Shown: piece by piece, positions 35,334 through 54,842 of the stretch
Numbering within the stretch: the stretch's first letter is position 1
How the letters are laid out: every line of letters starts with the position of its first letter
Position numbers and translations under genes: made by a program
Assembly (NCBI GenBank): GCA_002011125.2
Contig: MTMF02000009.1
Location: forward strand, 482,995-546,994
From: Candidatus Hydrothermarchaeum profundi
GTDB taxonomy: Archaea; Hydrothermarchaeota; Hydrothermarchaeia; Hydrothermarchaeales; Hydrothermarchaeaceae
Reading direction: 5' to 3'
DNA: 64,000 bases
The notes under the pieces: generated by a model
The model's database searches: none
The model's input: only the letters and a program-made list of their open reading frames with translations
What the model was told of the DNA's origin: nothing

Positions 35334-36371
35334 TCATTTAAGTTCATAATGGGCGCCTCTCCCGCTTCCTTTGAGTTCTATCACATCCATTTTGACGAGT
35401 TTTGATAGTTCCTTTAAGGCTGCCTGCCTGGTGATTTTAAACATATTTGCCACATTTCCTGCCGTTATCCTTCCGTTTCTCTGCATGAATTCTATTATTT
35501 TCATTTGTCTTTCGGTTAAAGCAATCTGTCCTTTTTCCTTTCTTTTTCTTCCTTCAACAGAGAGCTGTAGAACTTTTTCTTTAACCCTTGATATTGAAAT
35601 CTTTACTCCTTCTGTGAAATACTCAAGCCATGGGGTCAAATCAAGTGCGTTCTGATCAACCGATTTTAGAGCTTCATAATAGGCTCTTCTGTCACTGTCA
35701 TAATAATCATCCAGTGTAAAGAACCTTTTGATGTCAAATTCTCTTAGATAGAGAATAAGGGTGGCAAGTGCCCTTGCGGTTCTTCCATTTCCGTCTGCAA
35801 AGGGATGAACCCTCACGAATTCATAGTGGGAAATGCCAGCAACAATAACAGGATGAAGTTCAAGAGTTTCTTTGGAATTAAGCCATTTGATAAAGTTTTT
35901 CATCAATTCGGGGACTTCCTCTGACGGTGGAGGCATGAATATAACCTGGCCTGTAATTCTATTGCCAACATAGACCAGAATTTTTCTGTATTTTCCTTCC
36001 CATTCTGGATTATCAAGCGTGTCTTTTGTTATGTCTTTATGCAACTTTAAGATGTGTTCCTCTGTAATCTTTCCGTTTTTCTGATATTTTTCTATGTTTT
36101 CAAGCACTTTTAGATAATTCAGGACTTCCTGTTTTGCCCTTCTTGTCGCGGTTACCTTTCTTCCCTGTGCGAGGTTGCTTACTTCCTCAAGAGTTAATGG
36201 ATTTCCTTCAATGGCTGTGGATGCATGGGTTGCCCTGATTAGGGCTTCTCTTCTCAAAGATATCTCCCATTTAGGAATGAGATATGCATTCAGAATAACC
36301 TCTCTTGCCGAGGTAATTTCAACGAGGTTGTTGACTATGGCGTTCGTGTATCTGAAATTTGGCTTAAGCAT
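35334..36371 (-). CDS. Fic family protein with C-terminal HTH
   Basis: HPFADGNGRTAR catalytic motif; STAIEGN inhibitory-type motif. Confidence 0.95.
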   Translation of the reverse strand: MLKPNFRYTNAIVNNLVEITSAREVILNAYLIPKWEISLRREALIRATHASTAIEGNPLTLEEVSNLAQGRKVTATRRAKQEVLNYLKVLENIEKYQKNGKITEEHILKLHKDITKDTLDNPEWEGKYRKILVYVGNRITGQVIFMPPPSEEVPELMKNFIKWLNSKETLELHPVIVAGISHYEFVRVHPFADGNGRTARALATLILYLREFDIKRFFTLDDYYDSDRRAYYEALKSVDQNALDLTPWLEYFTEGVKISISRVKEKVLQLSVEGRKRKEKGQIALTERQMKIIEFMQRNGRITAGNVANMFKITRQAALKELSKLVKMDVIELKGSGRGAHYELK

Positions 36372-39300
36372 TTTCTCCCTCTATCACTTTAACCCAAGGG
36401 TGGGATTTTATCTTTTTAATAGTTTCCATTATCTCCCCATCCGCAGTTATCTCCTCATAGACCTTTTCAATGGCTGTCATCTTTTCTTCATCCGACCCCA
36501 ACTCTTCAATATCAATAAGATAGGGCTCCACCAGTTCGGCAAGATTGGTGGGCACGCCGTCTTCTTGGAATTTTTCTTTGAAGTATAATGAATAAATTAA
36601 AGAATCAAGTATTTTTCCAGAAAAAAAATCAATAATTTTAGAAACTTGATGAGCATTATTATTGAGAAAAATTAAGTAACTTGACAGTTTTAAAAATCCT
36701 GTAATTTTTTCGGGGATTATAATTGGAAGATCTTTTAGAAACGAAATTGGATATCTTAAAGAACCTTGTGGGATTCTAGCAGAATAGAATTTTTTCTTGT
36801 GAATCCAGTTAAATAATTTTGAATTCAACAACGTTAAAATATACTTATTTTTCTCGATGTCGTTTGTACTAAAAGAATGGACAGCAACTAATAAACCAAT
36901 GCCTTCAGTGTCAATAGCTGCAGTTAATTTTTTTGCAACCCCTCGAATTATTATTTTGTTTTTCTGTAAAAACAAATCTTTTGTGTCATCAGATAGAGGA
37001 GCACTCTCAATGGAGATATGCGGAAAATTGAAATTCTTTTTATAGATTTTTACATTTTTACCCCACAAAAATCCATAAGGTTTTATGTAGCTATTTGTTA
37101 CGATTTTGCAAGATTTTTTGTCAGTCTTTCCTTCGTGTATATAGGACTCCATATTCCAATATTCAAATCCCATGACCCCTGTTCGAACATCTCCGACCTG
37201 TCCCAATGGAACTGAATTAGAACTACTTGAGCTGAGTATTTCATTTACACTCTTATCACTGAAGACTTGGAAATGTCCACTGGCAGAATCAATTAATTCG
37301 CTTTTTTTGATAGATTTGCCTTTATTTTTATTTAAAGTTCCTAGTTCTTTTTCGGATTCAATTATGATAATTTTTACTTGATAGTCTCTTTCATTTTTTT
37401 CTTTTCTTAGGATCATTACAGCTGTCGAAACTAAAGCATCTTGGAAGATACTCTTTGCTTTTGAAAAATCAATTATTTCCCTGATAGTACAATTTTTTAA
37501 AAGAAAATCTCTTAACTTTTTCCCGTAATCTGCAACAAAATATTTGTTAGATGTAATATAACCCATAAGCCCCTTTTCGTTCAAAACATTGATTGATTTT
37601 TCAAAGAACAGAATGTAGATATCATACGGCCCGTATGCAGTAGAATAAATTTTATTAAATATCTTTTTTTCAGCAGGGATCTTTGAGGCTTTCACATATG
37701 GTGGATTCCCTATCAAAATATCGAAACCTCTTTCACCTTTTGGTCTATCAGGATCAAAAACTTCATAGAACTCAAAGCCCCAATGGAAGGGGTGGAGGGC
37801 CTCAAGCTCTTCTTTGGAGATTTTGATTTTGTAATCCACAGTAAGCATCCTGTGGAATTTTTCATTGAGCTCTGGTCTGAACTTCTCGTTAATCCGCTCG
37901 ATGTCCCTTTTCAAATTCTCGGCAATCTTCGGGTCAGTAGTGGCTTTGTATTGATCAAGAAGAGCCCCCTTTGCTTTTATTATTTGCATTGTCGTATCTG
38001 CAGAGTCCAGGGTCGTCTGTTCCACAAGGGGGGCTTCCACAAAGCCGATTAGACTGTTGCCGTGCATGATATTGTAATCGATGTTGGGGAGGGGTTCCAC
38101 GCTCTCGATACTCAGGTCAGAGATCATGGAAAGCCACAGCCTGAGCTTTGCGATTTCGACAGCCCCATCCTCTAAATCGACGCCGTAGATGTTTTGGGTG
38201 GCTATGATCCTCTTAAAATAATAATCTGGGGAACCATAACTATCAATGGCCTTGTTCTCGGCGGAAAAAACCAACTCGTCTTTAAGAATTCTATAGCACT
38301 TGCGATAGAGGGCAAGAAGTATCTTGTGGGCGGCCATGAGAAATGCTCCGCTCCCGCAGGCGTTATCCAGCACCCGGAGTTCTTTCAAAATATTGAAATA
38401 GAGATAGGAGACCCTGTCAATTTCATTTTTGGAGAATTCCTGCTTGTCCAGCAATTCGGACCAGATGTTCTTGTAATCTGTCCCAAACCTCTCGTTCAGC
38501 CTGTCCCGTAGATATGGATAGATGGTGTTCATGGATATGTATTCGGTTATTTCCGAGGGGGTATAATAGGCCCCCTTGCACTTCCTCCCTGTTACACTCT
38601 GCTCGAAAATGTGGCCGAGTATCGAGGGAGTCAGGACGACCGCATCCTCATGCCGTTCCTCAACGACCCACTCATAGGAGTCAAAGAGTCTGAAAATCTC
38701 TCCCCATATCCCGTCCTTTATCGATATCTCATTATCAATCTCAACCTCCTTCTTTCTAAAAAGACCTCCATTGAGATAGGGAATGTTTCCAAGATTTACT
38801 CCGTTCACTTCGATTTTTTCATGAAAAGGGTGGTCATAGTTGAAGGCATTGAAGAAGAGGGGTTTGAGGTAGTCGTTGAAGAAATTCCTTTTTTTGTCCC
38901 TGTTTCTATAGAGATTTGTTAAGTAATCCTTTTCTATAATCTCTCTGCTTTGGAGGAAATAGATGAAAATAATCCTATCAAGAAGCACTTGGGAATAAAA
39001 CCATCTCTCATCGTCATCCAGTCCCTTTAGCGAATCTGAAAGTCTGGTCTTTATAACCTTATATTCATCATAGAACTTCTTTACAAGGGGTTTGGTATCA
39101 AAAAGTGCCTGGAAACTGTCATTGTATGCTTTGTCTTCATATTTCAGGGCATTCAGCAACTGGAGCCTGCTCAGCTTTGTATAGTCCCTCTCCCTGCGGT
39201 TCTTGTCATAGACGAACTTGAAAGGAGTATGGTATTCAGAGAATATATAGTAAACGTCGAAGTCATTATCTATGAAAATGTAGTAGGGCGTCATATGGAC

Positions 39301-39480
39301 ACCCTTCTTTTCTCGAAATAATTGATAGGCGTGTGAGTAATTCAAATCATCAGTGAAATAATACTTGGCTTTATGCTCCCTGTCGATCCAGAAAGTCTCC
39401 TCATCAATGTATACAAAACCCTTATCATGGAAAAAATGCTCCTCAAAGTCTTCCCTCGAAGAGATGTCTTCAAACTTCAT
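36364..39480 (-). CDS. Eco57I/type IIG-like N6-adenine DNA methyltransferase with C-terminal TRD
   Basis: GAYYTP, LDNACGSGAF (motif I), IGNPPY (motif IV), YLNGGLF, TaqI_C-like LLNSKL. Confidence 0.92.
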   Translation of the reverse strand: MKFEDISSREDFEEHFFHDKGFVYIDEETFWIDREHKAKYYFTDDLNYSHAYQLFREKKGVHMTPYYIFIDNDFDVYYIFSEYHTPFKFVYDKNRRERDYTKLSRLQLLNALKYEDKAYNDSFQALFDTKPLVKKFYDEYKVIKTRLSDSLKGLDDDERWFYSQVLLDRIIFIYFLQSREIIEKDYLTNLYRNRDKKRNFFNDYLKPLFFNAFNYDHPFHEKIEVNGVNLGNIPYLNGGLFRKKEVEIDNEISIKDGIWGEIFRLFDSYEWVVEERHEDAVVLTPSILGHIFEQSVTGRKCKGAYYTPSEITEYISMNTIYPYLRDRLNERFGTDYKNIWSELLDKQEFSKNEIDRVSYLYFNILKELRVLDNACGSGAFLMAAHKILLALYRKCYRILKDELVFSAENKAIDSYGSPDYYFKRIIATQNIYGVDLEDGAVEIAKLRLWLSMISDLSIESVEPLPNIDYNIMHGNSLIGFVEAPLVEQTTLDSADTTMQIIKAKGALLDQYKATTDPKIAENLKRDIERINEKFRPELNEKFHRMLTVDYKIKISKEELEALHPFHWGFEFYEVFDPDRPKGERGFDILIGNPPYVKASKIPAEKKIFNKIYSTAYGPYDIYILFFEKSINVLNEKGLMGYITSNKYFVADYGKKLRDFLLKNCTIREIIDFSKAKSIFQDALVSTAVMILRKEKNERDYQVKIIIIESEKELGTLNKNKGKSIKKSELIDSASGHFQVFSDKSVNEILSSSSSNSVPLGQVGDVRTGVMGFEYWNMESYIHEGKTDKKSCKIVTNSYIKPYGFLWGKNVKIYKKNFNFPHISIESAPLSDDTKDLFLQKNKIIIRGVAKKLTAAIDTEGIGLLVAVHSFSTNDIEKNKYILTLLNSKLFNWIHKKKFYSARIPQGSLRYPISFLKDLPIIIPEKITGFLKLSSYLIFLNNNAHQVSKIIDFFSGKILDSLIYSLYFKEKFQEDGVPTNLAELVEPYLIDIEELGSDEEKMTAIEKVYEEITADGEIMETIKKIKSHPWVKVIEGENA

Positions 39481-42400
39481 TCTAAGGCCTCACTGCAAAC
39501 GATGTAGGTAAGGGGATCCTCTTTCTCCTCAATCTCCTCAACCATTCTCGCAAGATTGTGGTCATAATACAATATCTCAAGTTTCTTCATCAACTCTTCC
39601 CCCTTAATCTCGTTGTTTTTAATCAATGTTAACTGTTTGTTCAACGGCTTTGATGGAATCTCTGTGGTGAAGACCCTTTCAAACTCTACGATCTTCGATA
39701 TTAGGTCTTCCTTCTCTTTCGCATCTTCGAATTCTGATACCTCGACCTCTTTTCGAAACTCGTTTAGGGCTTTTTTGATATACCTCTGGCCGGTAGTGAG
39801 CTTCACTTTCTCCCCGGCATCTTCGGCCTCTTTAACCATCTGGGAAAACTTCTTCTTCATATCAGAAACCGTCTTGTTATATCCTGGCGGAATCTTGAGC
39901 ACCGGCTCATCCTTATTACATTTTATGATTTTGAGAATCTTAGCCTCATCTTCAAAGACGATATTACCCTTCGGGTCCAGTAAGTATAGCCTCTTGTAGT
40001 TGCCTTTCTTCAAAAACACAAACCGATACTTGTTCCCATCTGGTGATTGTCTGGCGCTCCTGACCCCCATGGAGATATTTTTAATCCTTTCAAGGAGTTC
40101 AGGCTCTTCTTTCTGGAGTTTTCTGATGATATCCTCTGCCTCAGATACCTTTACTTTCTCATCCTCTTCTTCAAACCGGTCAAGCTCTTCTGGGTTCTCG
40201 TCATATATTGCATACATGGCTTCGGTGTTCAACATTTCCCTAGTATGGAGGATGTACGTATCCTCGCCGATGGCAGTATGTATCTCTTTTATTCTAATAT
40301 CGAGTTTTTCCTTAAGCTTCAGGTTCTTCTCAAGCTTTTTCTCAGGGAGAAAATTGTAAACTCTGATAACCTCGGCCTCTGTTCCGATCCGATCCACCCT
40401 GCCAATCCTCTGAATCAGTCTGACTGGGTTCCAGTGAAGGTCGTAGTTAATAACATCAGAGCAGTCCTGTAGATTTAAGCCTTCTGAGAGGACATCTGTT
40501 GATATTAGGATATCTATCTCTTCCTCTCCATTTTCAAACGTATATTGATTAGAGCGTGGAGCGAACCGTCCAACAACCTTATGCCGGTCTTTAGTATTAC
40601 CGGTTATGACCTCCATGTTCCTCTTGAAGTGACCTTTAAGTTCTTCATAGATATAATTGGCTGTGTCCACGAATTCTGTAAAAACAAGAACCTTCTTTCC
40701 CTTGAGTTCCGGGGATTTTAATTTAGTCATTAGTTCGCGAAGTTTTGTATCAGTCCATAGCCCGGGAATATCCTTTACAAGACCGAATATCTCCTCCAAA
40801 ATCCTCAGGTCTGAACTGATATCGGCTTCAAGAGCCGGGACATCAAAATCTTTTATGTCATATTTCTCTGACAGGCCTTCAATATTCTGCAAAATCTCAG
40901 CAAGGTCCTCATCTTCCTCAATTTGCGAGTCATAGATGACCTTCTGGACCTCTTCCCCAGCAGGTACATATCCTTTTTTTAATGCTTCAAGAAAAATTGT
41001 ATTGATTTTTATAAAGTTCTCAATGCTTCTTTTGAAGGCAAAGCTTGAGCTCTCAAACCTTTTGAAGAGACCTGATCTCACAAGTCCCTTGAGATTCTGT
41101 CCTGCACTTTTCAGTTCGAGATAAGGATGTTTATTCTGTTTGGCTGGCAATACGTAATCATAAAGGCCGTATCTTGCAAGAGTTAGCCTAGATAACGACT
41201 CGTAAACCCTGTCGTAGATGCCTTCATAAACCTCGTCTATACTGTAACTCAAGGTCTTCAAGTCCCTCTCGGGGAAATAGTTTCTTTTCTTGCCGATTCT
41301 AACATAATACTTTCCGTTATTATCCTTTTTTCCATAATATTTTATGATCTGCTTTCTCGTCCTTCTGACAAGGAGATGGCTCAAGATGCTTGAAAGAGCG
41401 GCTTCACCGTTTTCAACAGTCTTGAAGAACTCTTTGAGGTTTGCCGGGGCCACGGGAATTTTAGTCCTGTCCTTTGCATGAAAGAGCTTAATCTGATAGT
41501 AAATATCTAGTGGCGTATTGTTTAGAGGGGTTGCTGTTAAAAGAACCGTCTTTCTCCTTGATGTGAAGGGCTGGAGCAGTTCATATCTCTTGGTGTTGGG
41601 GTATCTGAAATTGTGACTCTCATCGATTAGGACAATATCACAGTTCTCGTATCTCTTAAGTAGGTTCTTATTTCTATCACTCAGCATGCTCATGGACAAA
41701 ACCTTGGCTCCGAGTTCGTATTTCTCGTTGGATTCTTCCCACATATCCACAAGCGACTTGGGACAGATTATCAGCGGTTTATAACCATAAACATCGGCGA
41801 AATATTTGAGGACACCTGAGCCGATATAGGTCTTTCCCAACCCAACAACATCAGAAATAAAGGCACCATTGTACTGTTTGATTATGGATATTGCAGTTTT
41901 AACAGCCACTTCCTGAAAGTTGGTGAGAGTCGGCAGAGTGTCCTTCCAGAACAGCTTGATATCCTTTTCCTCCTCAAGCCGGTCTTCCACCAAATGGTAG
42001 AGGGTTTTGAGATATAGTTCGTATGGCGTGACTTCAGCTATGGGCCAGGAGACTTTTAACAGTTCCATTAAGCTTTCATCAAAATTTTCTGAGTTTTTCC
42101 ATAAATCCATGAACCATTTTGTCAAATCTTCATGGTCTCTTTCGTCTCGTGTTTTGATATTGAGTTCCGTATTGTGATACATCCCTGCCATTGACAGATT
42201 GCTTGATCCGATGATTGCCATACCCGGGCCATATTGGGCTCGAAGATCTGGCGGATAGTCGAAAATATATGCCTTGCTGTGAAGCCTCCCCCGCGTATAA
42301 ACTCTCACCCGGATTTTCTCTTTGGAAATCAACTCAGCAAGGTTATACATCCACCCCTCATTTTCATCGGTTTGATCCATCCCTTCGAGAGTAGATTTAA

Positions 42401-42719
42401 CTCGTTGCTTAGTATCGTCCAATTTTTGTTTTTTCTTCCCAAATTCAATTTTTTTATTTGCAGACTTTACACGTTCGAGATGGTTATATCCTTCTGCCAA
42501 CTGTTCTATTGTTTCTCTATCCGATGTGTTACCTATCAAAAGCCGGAGCTTTTTGAATCCTTCCCTATTCAATTCCCTCTGAATGCCACTAAATCCGCTG
42601 AGAAAGAAGTAGCCAATTGCGAATTTTGCTTCTACACTCCCATCAAGGGCTTTCTTTACATTATAAAGGAGTTGCCTTTCGATGACATCTTTATTGTTAT
42701 CTATTATATTGGATGCCAT
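39477..42719 (-). CDS. PLD-nuclease / SNF2-family helicase fusion
   Basis: HSKAYIFD...GSSNLS (HKD), DVVGLGKT, DESH, LTATP, SEGLNLQ, WNPVRLIQRIGRVDR. Confidence 0.92.
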   Translation of the reverse strand: MASNIIDNNKDVIERQLLYNVKKALDGSVEAKFAIGYFFLSGFSGIQRELNREGFKKLRLLIGNTSDRETIEQLAEGYNHLERVKSANKKIEFGKKKQKLDDTKQRVKSTLEGMDQTDENEGWMYNLAELISKEKIRVRVYTRGRLHSKAYIFDYPPDLRAQYGPGMAIIGSSNLSMAGMYHNTELNIKTRDERDHEDLTKWFMDLWKNSENFDESLMELLKVSWPIAEVTPYELYLKTLYHLVEDRLEEEKDIKLFWKDTLPTLTNFQEVAVKTAISIIKQYNGAFISDVVGLGKTYIGSGVLKYFADVYGYKPLIICPKSLVDMWEESNEKYELGAKVLSMSMLSDRNKNLLKRYENCDIVLIDESHNFRYPNTKRYELLQPFTSRRKTVLLTATPLNNTPLDIYYQIKLFHAKDRTKIPVAPANLKEFFKTVENGEAALSSILSHLLVRRTRKQIIKYYGKKDNNGKYYVRIGKKRNYFPERDLKTLSYSIDEVYEGIYDRVYESLSRLTLARYGLYDYVLPAKQNKHPYLELKSAGQNLKGLVRSGLFKRFESSSFAFKRSIENFIKINTIFLEALKKGYVPAGEEVQKVIYDSQIEEDEDLAEILQNIEGLSEKYDIKDFDVPALEADISSDLRILEEIFGLVKDIPGLWTDTKLRELMTKLKSPELKGKKVLVFTEFVDTANYIYEELKGHFKRNMEVITGNTKDRHKVVGRFAPRSNQYTFENGEEEIDILISTDVLSEGLNLQDCSDVINYDLHWNPVRLIQRIGRVDRIGTEAEVIRVYNFLPEKKLEKNLKLKEKLDIRIKEIHTAIGEDTYILHTREMLNTEAMYAIYDENPEELDRFEEEDEKVKVSEAEDIIRKLQKEEPELLERIKNISMGVRSARQSPDGNKYRFVFLKKGNYKRLYLLDPKGNIVFEDEAKILKIIKCNKDEPVLKIPPGYNKTVSDMKKKFSQMVKEAEDAGEKVKLTTGQRYIKKALNEFRKEVEVSEFEDAKEKEDLISKIVEFERVFTTEIPSKPLNKQLTLIKNNEIKGEELMKKLEILYYDHNLARMVEEIEEKEDPLTYIVCSEALE

Positions 42720-48108: not shown

Positions 48109-48312
48109 ATGTGCCTTATACCGCCTGAGCATATGAGGCGCTATGAGCAGGGGGAGGTACCTTTAGGTAAGGAGTTTGAATGTAGAAACTGTGGAGAATC
48201 CGGGATAGTGAATGTATGGAAGAACAAGCGGCCAGTATGCCCGAAATGTGGCTCCTCTGATGTAATCCTAACTCCTGGCGGGACTCATATGCCTGATGGT
48301 TGCCGCGACTAA
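48109..48312 (+). CDS. Small Zn-ribbon protein (copy 1)
   Basis: CRNC...CPKC; near-identical paralog at 53050. Confidence 0.7.
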   Translation: MCLIPPEHMRRYEQGEVPLGKEFECRNCGESGIVNVWKNKRPVCPKCGSSDVILTPGGTHMPDGCRD

Positions 48313-50639
48313 CAGGGTGGTTTTTTAACATGTTTTATTGTTAGGACACCTGTCATGGAGTACTCGATCAGGGTCCTCGGTGCCCCGGGTATGAATCTTT
48401 TCTCTCCCCTGTCAAGGGCTTCTTCTTCTTTCCAGAGGGATAAGCCGTGGTATGGGAAGTCTGGGTCGTTTATCTTCGCCCATGGCCAGCCGAGGGCGGG
48501 TTCGCCGTCCTTGACTAATATTATATCGCTCTTAGAAGCCACGGCTAGCTTAAGCTCTTTTTGCGTTATCCTTGTGGCCCAGAAGACCTTGTCTCTTAGA
48601 GCTTCTGACAGCGCTGTTACCTTGCTGGTTATCTCGTAGGCTGTTTCAGCAGGCTCTAGGTCTATGAATCCAACGTAGGCGTCATCTATGATGAAGTGAA
48701 GGCTGGGGGCTCCATCGTTTACTACGTACTGGGCCTTTAAGCCTTCTCCAAGGCTCAGGGCGGCCTTCGGTTCGAACTCGCTGTACGCCAGAAGGGTCTT
48801 AACTTTTGCTGGGGCTATGCTCATTCTGTAGTTCTCGGAGCTCGTTACTAGGTAGTCTTTTCCCTCGTAGGCGAAGACCCCGCCTGCCTCTGGGCCTGCG
48901 AGGACCTTGCCGAGCCTTATCCTCACCGGGGGCCCGCTGTCATGGAGGTAGAGGGAGTCATAGAGGGAGTCGCCTTCGATGTCTTTTATCGGTGAGAGGG
49001 TGTAGACCTCCCCTGATTCTCCTTTGATGTCCACGCTCAGCAGGGTCTCGTAGTCTCCTACTTCCTCTGGGAGCTTGTGCACGGTTACAGGGAGGGATGT
49101 TGTAACCCCCCCGATGGCGGCGGAGATGATGCCTGAGCCGGGGGCTTCAGGGGAGAAGGCGAGGGTCTCCCCGGTCTGGGAAATTCTGAACTCCGTTGAA
49201 CTCCAGGAGACCTCTACAGGGTTGCCCGCGGGGCCGTAGGCAGTGAAGGTGGCTTGCTCGCCCTCATAGAAGCACGTGCGGTTACCCGGGGTGCCTATTG
49301 TCACCCCGCCGGTAATAGTTGCATTTCCTTTTTCAACACAATGAGCTATACCATTGCCGCTTATCCCTCCGAACACGTAGTTATCCGGAGCCTCTTCTGG
49401 CGACATTTTAAAGGAAAAAGTAACGCTATGATAACCCGACCCTTCGCGAATACAGGTAAACTTGAATTTTTTAGTCCAGCGTTCACCTGGCCTAAGAAGG
49501 GGATATACTGTGCCGTCCTTTTCTAACTCCAAACTACCTTTAGCAGTGGGTTCTATTTCCACATTTTTTAATTCAGTTGGTAGTTGTCCTTCTTCTAACT
49601 CCCCCTTAGGAAGGTTCTGGATAATGAATGTTGCTTCAAAAGAATTGCCCACAGAAAGACTAATTTCATGGGGAATTATCATAATTTTAACCGTGCCAGC
49701 TTGTATAGTTTGTTGTCCTCCAACTCCGGTAATTGTAGCTTCTTTAGTTATAATTGGTATTAGATATTTTTCATCAACGCATTCAGCAGTGCCTCTTATC
49801 CATATAGATACGTCAATAAGATTACTCGGCTCCTCCACCTGTGGAACCCAATAGCCAACACTAGCGCCATATCTACCTTTTCCGCCGTGGCAAATATAAT
49901 AAAAGGTTGTTTGGTAATGCTCCCCAGATTTAAGGATTCCAATCTCTTTTGAACTGCTTATCGTACCCACAGGAATATCCCAGACTTCGGGCCATATCGC
50001 TGCATATTTTATATCTGTAGGTTTTCCTTCCTTTAACTCCTCGGCTGGTAAGTTCCAGATTTCAAAATCCGCCTTAAAAATACTTTCAGGAGGAAGGCTT
50101 ATTCTTTCCGGACGCATTTTAAATTTAATAGTCCCCATCCGTTTAACCACCCAACTGAAATGGCTGGTGTTTCCTTCTATATACGCCTCTCCAGGTCCCA
50201 CCACCACCCTCTGATCCTGGAGGAGCTCGACTTCTCCCCTGCCATTAACGGTGAGGAGGATGGGTGGCGCTACTTCTGTCTTGTTCGCGGTTATGTTGTA
50301 GAGGGAGCTGTCTAGGGCTATCTTGATGGTCACTGGCTTCTTGAAGGCTATGCCCTCTGGTCCGAGGCGGTATGGCTGCCCGATGACTGGCATCTCCCTC
50401 AGAGCCTTTGGTAGTTCATCTACGGAGGTAGCCTCACAGGTGACGGTGGTTTCCTTCTTTAAGGCGCCCTCTGGCACATCTACCAACACTCTGCCGTTGT
50501 CGCAGCTGAGGTTACCGCCCCCGGGGCCTATGATCGCTGAGGCTACTGCGATTTCGCCTGGGCCGTGGAGGAGAAATAACAGGGCAACACTCGTGGCTAA
50601 GGCAGCCAATAATAAGAGATAAGTCTTACTCCTACCCAT
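48309..50639 (-). CDS. Exported protein with ZU5-like domain (HFS motif) and two Ig-like repeats
   Basis: Signal/anchor helix; IIGPGGG...VDVPEGAL...YRLGPEGIAFKKPVTI...TSHFSW; duplicated ~140-aa beta-rich unit. Confidence 0.75.
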   Translation of the reverse strand: MGRSKTYLLLLAALATSVALLFLLHGPGEIAVASAIIGPGGGNLSCDNGRVLVDVPEGALKKETTVTCEATSVDELPKALREMPVIGQPYRLGPEGIAFKKPVTIKIALDSSLYNITANKTEVAPPILLTVNGRGEVELLQDQRVVVGPGEAYIEGNTSHFSWVVKRMGTIKFKMRPERISLPPESIFKADFEIWNLPAEELKEGKPTDIKYAAIWPEVWDIPVGTISSSKEIGILKSGEHYQTTFYYICHGGKGRYGASVGYWVPQVEEPSNLIDVSIWIRGTAECVDEKYLIPIITKEATITGVGGQQTIQAGTVKIMIIPHEISLSVGNSFEATFIIQNLPKGELEEGQLPTELKNVEIEPTAKGSLELEKDGTVYPLLRPGERWTKKFKFTCIREGSGYHSVTFSFKMSPEEAPDNYVFGGISGNGIAHCVEKGNATITGGVTIGTPGNRTCFYEGEQATFTAYGPAGNPVEVSWSSTEFRISQTGETLAFSPEAPGSGIISAAIGGVTTSLPVTVHKLPEEVGDYETLLSVDIKGESGEVYTLSPIKDIEGDSLYDSLYLHDSGPPVRIRLGKVLAGPEAGGVFAYEGKDYLVTSSENYRMSIAPAKVKTLLAYSEFEPKAALSLGEGLKAQYVVNDGAPSLHFIIDDAYVGFIDLEPAETAYEITSKVTALSEALRDKVFWATRITQKELKLAVASKSDIILVKDGEPALGWPWAKINDPDFPYHGLSLWKEEEALDRGEKRFIPGAPRTLIEYSMTGVLTIKHVKKPPC

Positions 50640-50701
50640 AAATATAGATTAGCTCTTGGAATAAAGAATTTTCCTTTTCCTGCATTATAGACTTGGTAAT
50701 A

Positions 50702-51628
50702 CTATTTTTTCTCATGAATTATCAGAAGTTTTAGCTTGGGGTCTAGGGTGTAGATGACCTGGTTTAGCACGCTCTGGCCGAGCATTGGGTAAATCCACAT
50801 GGGTTGCTGCATGAGAAACACTAAGCTGTCGTTGAAGGTAAGGTTGTCGATCTGTAGGTTGGCGAAGGCGTAGTCGAGCCTCCCGAGGTTAGGTGTTTCA
50901 AAGCCGGTTTTCTTCCTCTCTATCCCCAGCTCCTCAACAGTGCTGGGAGGCAAGGTTGTGTCGCTTAACCCCGTGTCCAGGAAGAAAGACACCTCTCTAC
51001 CGTTTATCTTCCCCGGGAGAAAAACGATTCCATTCTCTATCCTCAAGGGGATAACAGCAAGGGCTTCTCCCGGCAGGCTACCCGGCTCTCGGACTACAAT
51101 GATGTTGCTCTCCGCGTCAATCGTCCACTGATACCTCAAGATGATGTCTGTTCCAAGGAAGCCGTCGATTCCGGGGAAGACCTCCTCCCGGTAGACCTTA
51201 ACAGGATAATCCCTGTAGGTGTCGTTGAAAAGCCTGAAGGATAGCCTCGCCTCCCCCACGAGTATCGGCTTGCCCATGGAGTCCCTCCAGCTCGTATCCT
51301 TGACAGGAAGCAGTTCTAAGCCGAGCTCTCTGGCGAGCCTCGAGGATACTAGGGTCCCCACGATAGCCCCGGTGTCCCAGCTGAAAAACTTGGAGAAACT
51401 CTGGAACTCCACTTCAACACCGAAGACCCTGTTGTCCCTCCCTGGGGCTTTGCTTCCAAGGATCGGCACGAGCTCAGCCCGGAAGCCTCGTTGGAGGTAG
51501 TCTTTTTCTTCAATCCCAGGCTTCTGATGAGTTTCTCCCGTCTGCCGGAAAAAAAGTATTAAGACTGCAAACACCATGAGAGCCAGCAGTAATGGCAGGA
51601 AACGGAGGTTGTTAGATACCAGGGACAT
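50702..51628 (-). CDS. Membrane-anchored two-domain retropepsin-like aspartic protease
   Basis: WDTGA...DGFLG and FLDTGL...MLG motifs; N-terminal TM helix. Confidence 0.85.
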   Translation of the reverse strand: MSLVSNNLRFLPLLLALMVFAVLILFFRQTGETHQKPGIEEKDYLQRGFRAELVPILGSKAPGRDNRVFGVEVEFQSFSKFFSWDTGAIVGTLVSSRLARELGLELLPVKDTSWRDSMGKPILVGEARLSFRLFNDTYRDYPVKVYREEVFPGIDGFLGTDIILRYQWTIDAESNIIVVREPGSLPGEALAVIPLRIENGIVFLPGKINGREVSFFLDTGLSDTTLPPSTVEELGIERKKTGFETPNLGRLDYAFANLQIDNLTFNDSLVFLMQQPMWIYPMLGQSVLNQVIYTLDPKLKLLIIHEKK

Positions 51629-51869
51629 TAATATAAAATTACTCGGCGAATAAAAAAAATTTTTCTTCTCTAGTTAATCGTAACTAGGCGGGAATAAACC
51701 CTAAAAAATGAGGTCTGGAATAACTTGAAGTGAGCAATCTGATATCCCCGAACTTTTAGTGAAATTCTTAAGGAAAAATTAGAAAGTACCCCATGGGTAT
51801 AGGCAATGAAGAGTTCCGTCCATGAGCTTTCCAACATAACTGTAAAAAGGCCCCTGTCAGGGTGGTTAT

Positions 51870-53049: not shown

Positions 53050-53296
53050 ATGTGCATTATACCTCCGGAAGTAGCAGATGCCTATGAAAAGGGGGGAGGT
53101 ACCCCTGGGCAGGGAGTTCGACTGTAGAAACTGTGGAGAATCCGGGATAGTGAATGTGTGGAAGAACAAGCAACCGGTATGCCCAAAATGTGGCTTCCCT
53201 GATGTAATCCTAACTCCTGGCGGGACTCATATGCTTAATAGACCTATTTTCTGGTACAGGCTACAATGGTGGCTTTCCCATCTTCTCCTAAACTAG
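53050..53296 (+). pseudogene. Zn-ribbon protein copy 2, frameshifted in a G6 run
   Basis: ATG at 53050 aligns with 48109; G6 at 53091-53096 versus G5 in copy 1. Confidence 0.7.
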
Positions 53297-53340: not shown

Positions 53341-53598
53341 ATGAAGTTGCTTTCCAAGGAAGAAAGGGAATATTTCGAGGACCTCGAGAAGAATTTCGAC
53401 AGCCATGTGGAGAAGTACAGGGAAGAAAAGGAAAGGCAGCTGAAAGAAGGAAAGAGGAAAGAACTCGAGGAGGAACTCAGAGGCATAGAGGGTTACCTGG
53501 AAGGTATTTGGAGAGGAGAAATTTCTGACATCCAGGTAAATATCAGGTTCCATAGCGCTAAGTTACAGGTACTTAAAGAGGTTCTTGAAATTTGTTGA
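53341..53598 (+). CDS. Hypothetical charged helical protein
   Basis: ATG after GGAG; first gene of a + strand cluster. Confidence 0.6.
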   Translation: MKLLSKEEREYFEDLEKNFDSHVEKYREEKERQLKEGKRKELEEELRGIEGYLEGIWRGEISDIQVNIRFHSAKLQVLKEVLEIC

Positions 53599-54437
53599 TA
53601 GAAAAAATGAAAGAACTCGACGAGAGTTTTATTTCGGGTGTAATTATAGAGGAACTCTGGAAAGACGAGGACAAGGTTGAACAACAGGGTAGTGGTTGGT
53701 TTTCCAGAGAGGGAGAGTGGAGTTGTAACCTTAGAGAGGTAAAAGTAGACGATGTCAAGAAGCTCCGGGAGGGAGGCTACGAAGTATCTGCAACCTGCAA
53801 CATGGAAATCCAAACAGCACAAGTATATTCCTTTGACCATCCCCCAAAAGAAGCTCTTGGACGGGTAACGGTAAAAGTAAACGAGGACCTCAAGGTGGAG
53901 GAGTTCGATTATAAATGGATGAGCGAAGCTTTGGGTGGGCGATGTGGCTATAGCTTGGAAGAGATAACTGAGTGCAGGGACCTGCAGATGCTAGAGTTGG
54001 AATATCAGAAGCTCACCGAGCTACCTCCCGAGATAGGAGAGCTAAGGGACCTTAGGTATCTGATTATAAGAGGTAATTCCCTAACTCAGCTTCCACCAGA
54101 GATAGGGAAGCTTAAAAACTTGGAGTATCTTGATTTATGCTTAAACCGCCTTACTGCTCTCCCAGCAGAAATAGGAGAGCTTCGAAGCTTGTGGAAGCTT
54201 GATTTAAGGAGCAACCAACTCACTCGTCTTCCAGTTGAGATCAGGAACTTAACAAATCTGAGGTATCTCTACCTAGGAAATAATAAATTCTCTAAGGATG
54301 AAAAATCAAGGATCAGGGAGTTCCTGCCGAGGTGCCGGGTTTCCTTCTGGTTCTGGGGACCGCATTACGGCGTGTTTTTAGGGAATTTGGATGAGGAGTT
54401 AGAGGAGTTAGAGGAATCATTCAGGAGGCACTCATAA
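53592..54437 (+). CDS. Leucine-rich-repeat protein with uncharacterised N-terminal domain
   Basis: 4-5 LxxLxLxxNxLxxLPxEIGxL repeats. Confidence 0.9.
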   Translation: MLIEKMKELDESFISGVIIEELWKDEDKVEQQGSGWFSREGEWSCNLREVKVDDVKKLREGGYEVSATCNMEIQTAQVYSFDHPPKEALGRVTVKVNEDLKVEEFDYKWMSEALGGRCGYSLEEITECRDLQMLELEYQKLTELPPEIGELRDLRYLIIRGNSLTQLPPEIGKLKNLEYLDLCLNRLTALPAEIGELRSLWKLDLRSNQLTRLPVEIRNLTNLRYLYLGNNKFSKDEKSRIREFLPRCRVSFWFWGPHYGVFLGNLDEELEELEESFRRHS

Positions 54438-54841
54438 TGAAAATGCTTACAAAGGAAGTTATAGAGAAACTGGTACGCCGGGAGCTTGAAAAAGGTGAAA
54501 AGGAATTTGGGGAGTTATTCACAGCAGCTCAAGAAGGGAGGATAACTTGGGAGGAATTCAGGGATAAGAGCAGGACGCTACAAGGCTACGGCGTCTGGTG
54601 GAGCTCGGAGGCGCACTATTCCCTTGGAAAGGTGGAGGTAAACGAGGTCAACGAGCTGGGAGATGGTCTCTATGAAATCTCCGCGACATGTGACATGTTT
54701 TACGAGAGCGGGCATATAGTCTGGGGTGAAGGAGGAGAACTCGAAGAGTATGCCATAAGGCCTAAAAAAGCATCTGTAAAGATAAAGCTCAGGGTCAATG
54801 ACGCTCTTAAGGTGGAGGAGTTCAACTTCCGGTGGATTTGA
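54437..54841 (+). CDS. Hypothetical protein, paralog of the LRR protein N-domain
   Basis: YEISATCDM...VNDALKVEEFNFRW versus YEVSATCNM...VNEDLKVEEFDYKW. Confidence 0.75.
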   Translation: MKMLTKEVIEKLVRRELEKGEKEFGELFTAAQEGRITWEEFRDKSRTLQGYGVWWSSEAHYSLGKVEVNEVNELGDGLYEISATCDMFYESGHIVWGEGGELEEYAIRPKKASVKIKLRVNDALKVEEFNFRWI

Positions 54842-54842
54842 A

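Follow-up and report, generated by a model that had tools for sequence, protein, structure and literature searches.

Autoproteolytic domains with an H/S-F-S motif at their C-terminal end are found in PIDD1, UNC5CL, the FIIND of NLRP1 and CARD8, and Nup98, and many other eukaryotic ZU5 domains, including those of ankyrin and UNC5, do not undergo cleavage. The FIIND of CARD8 and NLRP1 is cut between the F and the second S of SFS (PMC3210808). This article concerns a gene of the archaeon Candidatus Hydrothermarchaeum profundi (assembly GCA_002011125.2, here G000) that encodes a surface protein with a ZU5 domain and an HFS motif. It lies in a stretch of 64,000 nucleotides (contig MTMF02000009.1, here C9, positions 482,995 to 546,994), which we refer to as the window. 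The open reading frame occupies positions 48309-50639 of the window, on the minus strand, and its 776-amino acid product is denoted the window protein, or P0001.

HFS joints on microbial surface proteins have been described experimentally only recently, exclusively with the ectodomain first and the anchor last, and mainly in Gram-positive bacteria. The GAIN-like MAIN domains are cut between the F and S of HFS, replacement of the serine by alanine abolishes cleavage, and the fragments co-purify (10.64898/2026.05.12.724683). For the MAIN domain of Bacillus subtilis YfkN, Brogan and Rudner demonstrated the cut by Edman degradation. The order reported for MAIN proteins in "virtually all" cases is signal peptide, ectodomains, MAIN domain and C-terminal anchor, and the preprint makes no mention of lipoproteins or of N-terminal anchoring (10.64898/2026.05.12.724683). 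The window protein resembles the MAIN proteins in being an envelope-anchored surface protein with a ZU/GPS-class beta-sandwich, an HFS motif in an inter-strand turn and Ig-like or adhesion fusion partners, and a cleaved, non-covalently held joint permitting ectodomain release can be modelled for both. However, its order is reversed, with anchor, ZU5 domain and ectodomain following one another, so that the released piece would carry the last strand of the domain alone. Moreover, the window module is matched directly by Pfam ZU5, which found nothing in 14 control genomes including that of B. subtilis; for this reason the window family is probably a different sequence family within the same superfamily as MAIN.

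Zhang et al. (2012) predicted N-terminal ZU5 autopeptidases on prokaryotic surface proteins, where cleavage at the base would lead to release at the cell surface; they reported related ZU5 domains in surface proteins that bear adhesion modules, and identified the active site with a "CxH" motif at the C-terminal end (PMC3482391). In the window protein, a large surface protein like those, the ZU5 domain is likewise N-terminal and directly follows the export signal. The protein differs from the polymorphic toxins of the same study in carrying no RHS, SpvB, beta-propeller or toxin domain and no immunity gene, and from the ZU5 proteins described there in being archaeal, in having a transmembrane anchor rather than a signal peptide or lipobox, in its surface layer (S-layer)-type end and in its H-F-S triad. 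With PIDD1, UNC5CL, the FIIND proteins and Nup98 it shares the ZU5 fold, the motif at the C-terminal end and a beta-sandwich thereafter, but those are cytosolic eukaryotic signalling proteins whereas the domain following ZU5 in the window protein is a generic Ig-, macroglobulin (MG)- or CARDB-like one. A further comparison is offered by archaeal S-layers built of two components, one of them a membrane stalk, such as SlaA and SlaB of the Sulfolobales (PMC5744192): the window protein, too, is a membrane-anchored beta-sandwich chain that could span the pseudo-periplasm and contact the lattice, and the S-layer protein of its genome lacks a hydrophobic C-terminal anchor. SlaB, however, has a C-terminal helix anchor and a coiled coil and shows no sequence relation to the window protein, which is also unlike SlaB in its self-cleavage motif and in being accessory. 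A search of the literature outside subscription journals and supplements found no account of a ZU5 joint at the N-terminus of an archaeal or S-layer-type protein.

We favour, with reasonable though not high confidence, the view that the window protein is an accessory surface protein which is cleaved in its ZU5 domain, docked to the S-layer and encoded by a recombinant gene.

The ZU5 domain and its HFS motif

The leader of the window protein (amino acids (aa) 1-27; 50559..50639, minus strand) consists of a basic start, MGRSK, and a hydrophobic helix of 18 residues, and it carries neither a cysteine nor a lipobox. The residues past the helix, HG followed by PG, would make a poor signal-peptidase site. 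The leader is most likely an uncleaved signal anchor that would hold the protein in the membrane as a type II membrane protein. This agrees with an earlier reading of the window (the original prediction), which had assigned the same reading frame to an exported protein with a signal anchor.

The ZU5 domain (aa 31-169; 50133..50549, minus) is supported both by Pfam (PF00791) and by its fold, and its G+C (GC) content at third codon positions (GC3), about 0.63-0.66, is foreign-like. The Pfam match extends over aa 33-108 and positions 1-79 of the 97 in the profile (E 1.8e-6, 28.6 bits against a cut-off of 21); when the whole genome was searched, the window protein scored 32.7 bits and a paralog, described below, 34.4 bits. 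ZU5 was the sole family found in a Pfam scan of the protein at E values up to 10, and a scan of NCBIfam gave no family match. An AlphaFold2 model of aa 31-300, based on 89 aligned homologs, has a mean predicted local distance difference test (pLDDT) value of 94.0 and a predicted template modelling score of 0.88. The best Foldseek matches in the PDB were the ZU5-ZU5-UPA-DD structure of ankyrin-B (4d8o, E 6.1e-10), UNC5b (3g5b, E 8.1e-8) and the ZU5 domain of erythrocyte ankyrin, and VIA-align superimposed model residues 1-139 (aa 31-169) on ZU5-ANK (3f59_A; Z 11.2, root mean square deviation (rmsd) 2.6 A, 122 residues aligned). The ZU5-like domain that had been proposed from the sequence is thereby confirmed as a ZU5 fold in the predicted structure.

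The predicted autoproteolytic site, between F161 and S162 of the motif H160-F161-S162, is encoded at 50154..50162 on the minus strand, with the codon for H160 at nucleotides 50162-50160, as the original prediction had it. In the model, H160 closes a strand, and F161 and S162 form a two-residue turn (model residues 131-132) flanked by strands at model residues 121-130 and 133-138. The turn precedes the final beta-strand of the domain (aa 163-168, WVVKRM; 50136..50153, minus), which was assigned by DSSP on the model and falls within the range aligned to ankyrin ZU5, and the motif is thus positioned at the GAIN/MAIN-type cleavage turn.

To explore the family, a profile was built from the four nearest sequences and run against 1.84 billion representatives of clusters less than 50% identical. 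It matched 1298 proteins at E<=1e-3, of which 129 reached E<=1e-10 and 13 reached E<=1e-30. Most of the more distant matches share the N-terminal module alone. Among the 150 proteins listed there were 144 such modules, 122 of which reach the motif; the triad is HFS in 106 of them, HFT in six, HLS in five, RFS in two, and RLG, HLG and HLT in one each. Considered position by position, H is present in 119 domains, F in 114 and S in 113, with F or L in all 122 and S or T in 120, and the serine is followed by the consensus W/P/T-[LIV]-[VT]-[RK]-T-K-G. Across these 122 domains no other feature of the module is as conserved as HFS, and this points to selection on the chemistry. Searched against the sequences in the PDB, the profile of the module yielded weak matches to the ZU5 domains of ankyrin-1 and ZO-1 alone (E 0.05-0.8) and did not find GAIN, FIIND or Nup98 sequences.

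In 100 of the 122 homologs the module starts no more than 60 aa from the N-terminus. It is preceded by a hydrophobic leader in 98 of the 103 homologs that could be evaluated, and 65 of these 103 carry a lipobox-like motif. Downstream, the 88 homologs scanned contain InlB B-repeats, CarboxypepD_reg, Big, PKD, DUF11, dockerin, beta-helix and similar surface domains. Taken together with the motif, these counts define a large class in which a leader or lipid anchor is followed by a ZU5 domain with HFS and then by variable surface domains, and the locus points to this class, of about 1,300 clusters when grouped at 50% identity, as a sister to the known HFS joints in the opposite orientation. One example is a 446-aa lipoprotein of Larkinella sp. 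VNQ87, with a lipobox, a ZU5 domain and THFS; one from Pseudoalteromonas has NFG in place of HFS.

The mechanism that we propose is that the ZU5 domain folds extracellularly and would cut itself between F161 and S162 by the HX(S/T) N-O acyl-shift chemistry of ZU5, GAIN and MAIN domains. Because the cut would fall in the turn before the last strand, the 615-residue ectodomain would remain attached only via the strand at aa 163-168, and could subsequently be pulled away from the membrane stub or shed. The self-cleaving joint is of an already known kind, and its prediction here has good support from the fold, the position of the motif and its conservation.

A different reading would have the ZU5 domain serve as a non-catalytic structural element or spacer, as in ankyrin and UNC5, with the HFS motif inherited but unused and the protein permanently tethered as a surface or stalk protein. 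Two observations favour it and count against cleavage. The structural matches listed above are to non-cleaving ankyrin and UNC5 ZU5 domains, and the motif has been lost in the closest archaeal relatives, whose ZU5 domains are otherwise well conserved. It is RFS in the paralog, RLG in a short form of the type found in genome G017, and HLG in a short form of 294 aa in genome G009 (L006:1471-2355), which consists of a leader, a ZU5 domain and one repeat, and this loss suggests that cleavage is dispensable in that clade. A further point against cleavage is that the experimental precedent for it comes from MAIN domains only, cleavage in the N-terminal ZU5 subfamily being a prediction. Against a non-catalytic role, HFS is intact in the window protein and in its two closest relatives, P0002 and P0003, and the triad combines the highest conservation in the module with a cleavage-competent turn, and we therefore regard that role as unlikely. 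If self-cleavage does occur in the window protein, the RFS paralog of this genome would provide a natural non-cleaving control.

The C-terminal half and the S-layer

The C-terminal 250 aa or so of the window protein are homologous to a unit that is repeated in the S-layer protein of the same genome, a relationship not previously recognised for this locus. This S-layer-type unit (aa 523-776; 48312..49073, minus) has a GC3 of 0.71 over its first 89 codons and of 0.57 over the last 165. A core of about 230 aa (aa ~545-776) is present in two copies each in P0013 (E 2.5e-38), P0019 and P0024, all three of which match the Pfam family S_layer_C (E 2e-21 to 3e-15); the window protein itself is unmatched by the S_layer_C and S_layer_N models. 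The genome encodes a single S_layer_C protein, on the minus strand of C9 at ~1.8236-1.8261 Mb (L021:2116-4611) and thus outside the window, with 831 aa, a signal peptide and two copies of the unit. In a BLASTP comparison, aa 523-776 of the window protein are 27% identical to it over 222 aa (E 6e-11), and a profile built from the ZU5 family only matched each of its two copies with an E value of 8e-20.

The unit is preceded by a PKD-like Ig domain (aa 443-522; 49074..49313, minus; GC3 0.73). AlphaFold2 modelled aa 441-776 with a mean pLDDT of 94.1, and VIA-align matched aa 441-522 to the PKD domain of ColG (4tn9_A; Z 10.2, rmsd 2.0 A, 75 residues aligned). The PKD-like domain is present 7-14 times over in other proteins matched in the family search, and the block of Ig domain and S-layer-type unit also ends P0006, a subtilase-type protein of 1325 aa (E 1e-94); being common to both proteins, it behaves like a shared module for association with the envelope. 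The last residues of the chain are a conserved KKPPC, for which the paralog has IPPPC. Both P0003 and the paralog retain C456 and C776, and any disulfide or attachment role for them is speculation.

In the proposed mechanism the ectodomain would comprise two CARDB-like sandwiches, the PKD-like Ig domain and the C-terminal unit, and the last of these, as a paralog of the block repeated in the genome's own S-layer protein, would dock the protein to the S-layer. Homology makes this the most likely role of the unit, and homology is also its sole basis, which we count among the points that detract from the proposal. Another is structural: Foldseek placed the DUF1608 S-layer domain of Methanosarcina acetivorans (3u2h) first for the C-terminal half (E 5.3e-6, template modelling (TM) score ~0.3), followed by other S-layer proteins, and yet 3u2h is not among the 50 VIA matches listed, which are all PKD or Ig structures aligned to aa 441-522. 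Since the Ig domain takes up the VIA matches, the DUF1608 match stands unconfirmed, on Foldseek alone. DUF1608 (PF07752) was not found in the genome with Pfam, and a profile of the C-terminal half had no match among the PDB sequences; the sequence evidence for kinship with the S-layer is stronger than the structural evidence. A complex prediction for aa 81-410 of the S-layer protein with aa 523-776 of the window protein scored 0.00, which is no evidence either way. Finally, the fusion of a ZU5 domain to the S-layer-type unit occurs in G000 alone among 35 genomes of the order, and this makes the window protein an accessory protein and not a general component of the S-layer.

The S-layer protein of the genome carries an exact internal duplication of 325 aa (aa 81-405 = 411-735), and in genome G024, from the same order, the unit is matched twice with equal scores, 990 nt apart, in one frame of 831 aa. 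The exact duplication could reflect concerted evolution or an effect of assembly.

Composition and history of the gene segments

Between the ZU5 and PKD-like domains lie two repeats, which the original prediction correctly held to be related (aa 166-297 against aa 313-445: 31% identity, E 3e-15). Repeat 1 (aa 170-300; 49740..50132, minus; GC3 0.32, native-like) is an Ig/macroglobulin-like, CARDB-like beta-sandwich with conserved C250 and C287, and repeat 2 (aa 313-442; 49314..49703, minus; GC3 0.34), with conserved C396 and C434, is paralogous to it. The fold is a generic one: for aa ~170-289, VIA gave Z values of about 10 to MG domains of C3, to RbmA and to bacterial alpha-2-macroglobulin, and fibronectin type III- and arrestin-like matches at the same level. 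A structure search of the ESM Atlas with the repeat gave TM scores of 0.66-0.72 to CARDB/COG1361 clusters, which is a lead only, and a feature search there gave no usable match. UPA is absent among the matches listed for the domain past ZU5, although 4d8o and 3g5b both contain UPA, and neither a UPA nor a death-fold domain was detected in the window protein.

The genome, assembled from a metagenome, consists of 2.19 Mb in 19 contigs, with the window on a contig of 1.9 Mb, and its small-subunit rRNA fragment matches the archaeal Rfam model with 758.8 bits under clan competition. GC content is 39.1%, and the GC3 of 1176 long reading frames has a mean of 0.354, a standard deviation of 0.066 and a 99th percentile of 0.594. 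Along the gene, in the direction of translation, GC passes from ~0.55-0.59 to ~0.33-0.45 and then to 0.53-0.65, and the GC3 of the three segments is 0.63, 0.31 and 0.65. A two-breakpoint likelihood model improved twice the log-likelihood (2dlnL) by 80.1, the maximum in 100 permutations being 19.0. The contrast that had been described as an AT-rich middle between GC-rich flanks is therefore real and beyond chance, but against the genome average it is the flanks that are outliers and foreign-like, while the middle is native-like. For the 3' switch the best position is after codon 442 (support 439-448), where repeat 2 meets the PKD-like domain. The 5' switch is best placed after codon 169, at the end of the ZU5 fold and seven codons past S162, rather than exactly at HFS where the middle module had been thought to begin, and the 2-lnL support interval (145-172) does include the motif. 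ZU5 codons average a GC3 of 0.66, and the aspartyl protease gene immediately upstream 0.67, with 0.41 for the next gene. Eight of the 30 islands in the genome (>=500 bp, GC >=0.52) fall at 531-559 kb of C9, around the locus.

Such a pattern might have arisen as an artefact, through a chimeric metagenome assembly of two organisms or through amino-acid composition. The provenance of the genome, in 19 metagenomic contigs, and the existence of GC-rich lineages in the same order (in G009 the neighbouring genes have 60-66% GC) lend this some plausibility. However, a single contig from sequencing run X2, of another study and another habitat, extends over 49036-50930 and both switch points with no differences, which excludes a chimeric junction as the source of the mosaic, and a contig from the probable source run crosses 48263-51700. 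Moreover, the signal resides in third codon positions and is therefore not due to amino-acid composition. We consider an artefact very improbable.

The segments also differ in their evolutionary histories. P0003 is 80% identical to the window protein in ZU5, 79% in the Ig domain, 74% in the link and 61% in the C-domain, but only 27% in repeat 1 and 23% in repeat 2. For P0002, whose truncation at 547 aa leaves the C-domain unscored, the values are 75% (ZU5), 86% and 83% (repeats 1 and 2), 63% (Ig) and 51% (link), and for the paralog they are 59%, 31%, 25%, 48%, 39% and, for the C-domain, 42%. In a separate comparison of repeat 1, P0003 is the most distant from the window protein at 22%, with the paralog at 32% and the G009 short form at 35%, and a free repeat-1 tree parts P0003 from P0001 and P0002. 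Two aspects weaken the case. An approximately unbiased test did not reject orthology, with P0001 and P0003 together, for repeat 1 (p 0.18); the mosaic is supported by only three independent sequences. In view of the topology result, a branch-length test was used instead, and proportional branch lengths for flanks and middle were rejected against unlinked ones (2dlnL 264.1, 4 degrees of freedom, p 6e-56; Bayesian information criterion 8750 for proportional and 8512 for unlinked). The flank branch lengths are 0.08 for P0003, 0.39 for P0002 and 0.83 for the paralog, and those of the middle 1.84, 0.007 and 1.45, respectively. Together with the GC3 switch points, the branch-length test indicates recombination at the domain borders. 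As a proxy for GC in the homologs, the GARP/FYMINK amino-acid ratio was uninformative, the middle being at ~0.8 in all of them.

The gene would thus be a recombinant in which the ZU5 module and the C-terminal half, together with the upstream protease gene, carry foreign, GC-rich codon usage, the middle repeats are native and the junctions coincide with fold boundaries; the order of the transfer events is our inference. The sharp GC3 mosaic at fold boundaries is a clear instance of recombination at the level of domains following horizontal transfer.

The original prediction had gone further and taken the middle for an exchangeable cargo, placed between conserved N- and C-terminal parts and released at the ZU5 joint as variable binders or decoys, a scheme that would resemble antigenic variation. 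The discordant histories of middle and flanks, the composition switches at domain boundaries and the surface-type, CARDB-like character of the repeats fit such a scheme, and the variable middle survives to this extent. Domain order is nevertheless constant, and such collinearity, here seen at the level of architecture, is an outcome that the original prediction had itself named as refuting it. Among the matches listed, P0003 (797 aa, 97% coverage) and the paralog (P0004, identical to P0005; aligned over aa 26-776 with the same domain order) are full-length and collinear, and all versions, however divergent, retain the two-repeat architecture and its cysteines rather than unrelated cargo. The 615 aa on the release side of S162 would include the conserved PKD-like domain and the S-layer-type unit, and not the middle alone. 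Furthermore, silent or donor cassettes of the middle are absent from the genome, where the only matches are the gene itself and its paralog, without any DNA-level copy, and two independent samples carry the gene in identical form; nothing supports variable binders or decoys. Cassette exchange of this kind, for which the mosaic offers just three independent sequences, is in our opinion improbable, and the recombinant, S-layer-docked surface protein described above is preferred.

The paralog is encoded on the plus strand at C9:565428-567689 (L002:1375-3765), ~32 kb beyond the window, and has 796 aa, 42% identity, the same architecture and native GC; its neighbours are a subtilase gene, transcribed divergently, and a gene for a KaiC-like/PAS protein. 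For the G009 short form the composition contrast is opposite to that of the window gene, with ~50-55% GC in surroundings of 60-66%. None of the 35 genomes of the order other than G000 has a full-length relative, two metagenome scans (with the A2 profile and with P0003) gave no confirmed relative, and a scan of the genome collection revealed four distant bacterial ZU5 loci and nothing else.

A bolder interpretation, which we put forward tentatively and consider rather unlikely as a whole, combines a pre-cut, breakable link between membrane and S-layer with exchange of the whole gene across archaea of very different GC content, in which the stalk repeats would be swapped as cassettes. The membrane stub would hold, via one ZU5 strand, an Ig-like stalk tipped with a copy of the S-layer lattice unit, and cleavage would act as a mechanical fuse for the S-layer tether, or as a self-removing signal anchor by which the ectodomain would be passed on to the lattice. 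The window protein would in any case be an archaeal member of its class whose released part would end in an S-layer building block. If cleavage is real, the idea of mechanosensitive release would extend to archaeal envelopes, and the joint would be a candidate route for attaching accessory proteins to the S-layer or handing them over to it.

Genomic neighbourhood

The neighbours of the gene encode an aspartyl protease, a TIM-barrel protein and a Zn-ribbon protein. The aspartyl protease gene (50702..51628, minus), upstream and co-oriented, specifies a membrane-anchored protein with two retropepsin-like lobes (Pfam Asp_protease_2 and gag-asp_proteas) and two DTG motifs. Its GC3 resembles that of the foreign-like flanks of the ZU5 gene, with which it was probably gained horizontally. 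The protease was considered as a conserved partner of the ZU5 protein and rejected, since it occurs in one of the 35 genomes, G000, and is absent beside both the paralog and the G009 gene.

Two direct repeats of 148 nt, on the plus strand and 89% identical, lie at 48150..48297, within a 67-aa zinc-ribbon reading frame (48109-48312), and at 53092..53239, within a second zinc-ribbon reading frame. They bracket a block of 4.9 kb containing the ZU5, aspartyl protease and TIM-barrel genes and small open reading frames, and no integrase was seen at this block.

Further along the window there are genes for a leucine-rich repeat (LRR) protein (53592-54437) and, in a cluster of GC-rich islands at 54857-59806, for a beta-propeller protein (54798-56255) and a HEAT-repeat protein of 514 aa (56287-57831). 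At 36364-42719, on the minus strand, an MmeI/Eco57I-type restriction-modification methylase (1038 aa) adjoins an SNF2 helicase of 1080 aa that has a PLD nuclease domain, and the pair is likely to constitute a defence locus. The restriction-modification methylase and the SNF2/PLD, LRR, HEAT and propeller proteins give the neighbourhood an accessory character.

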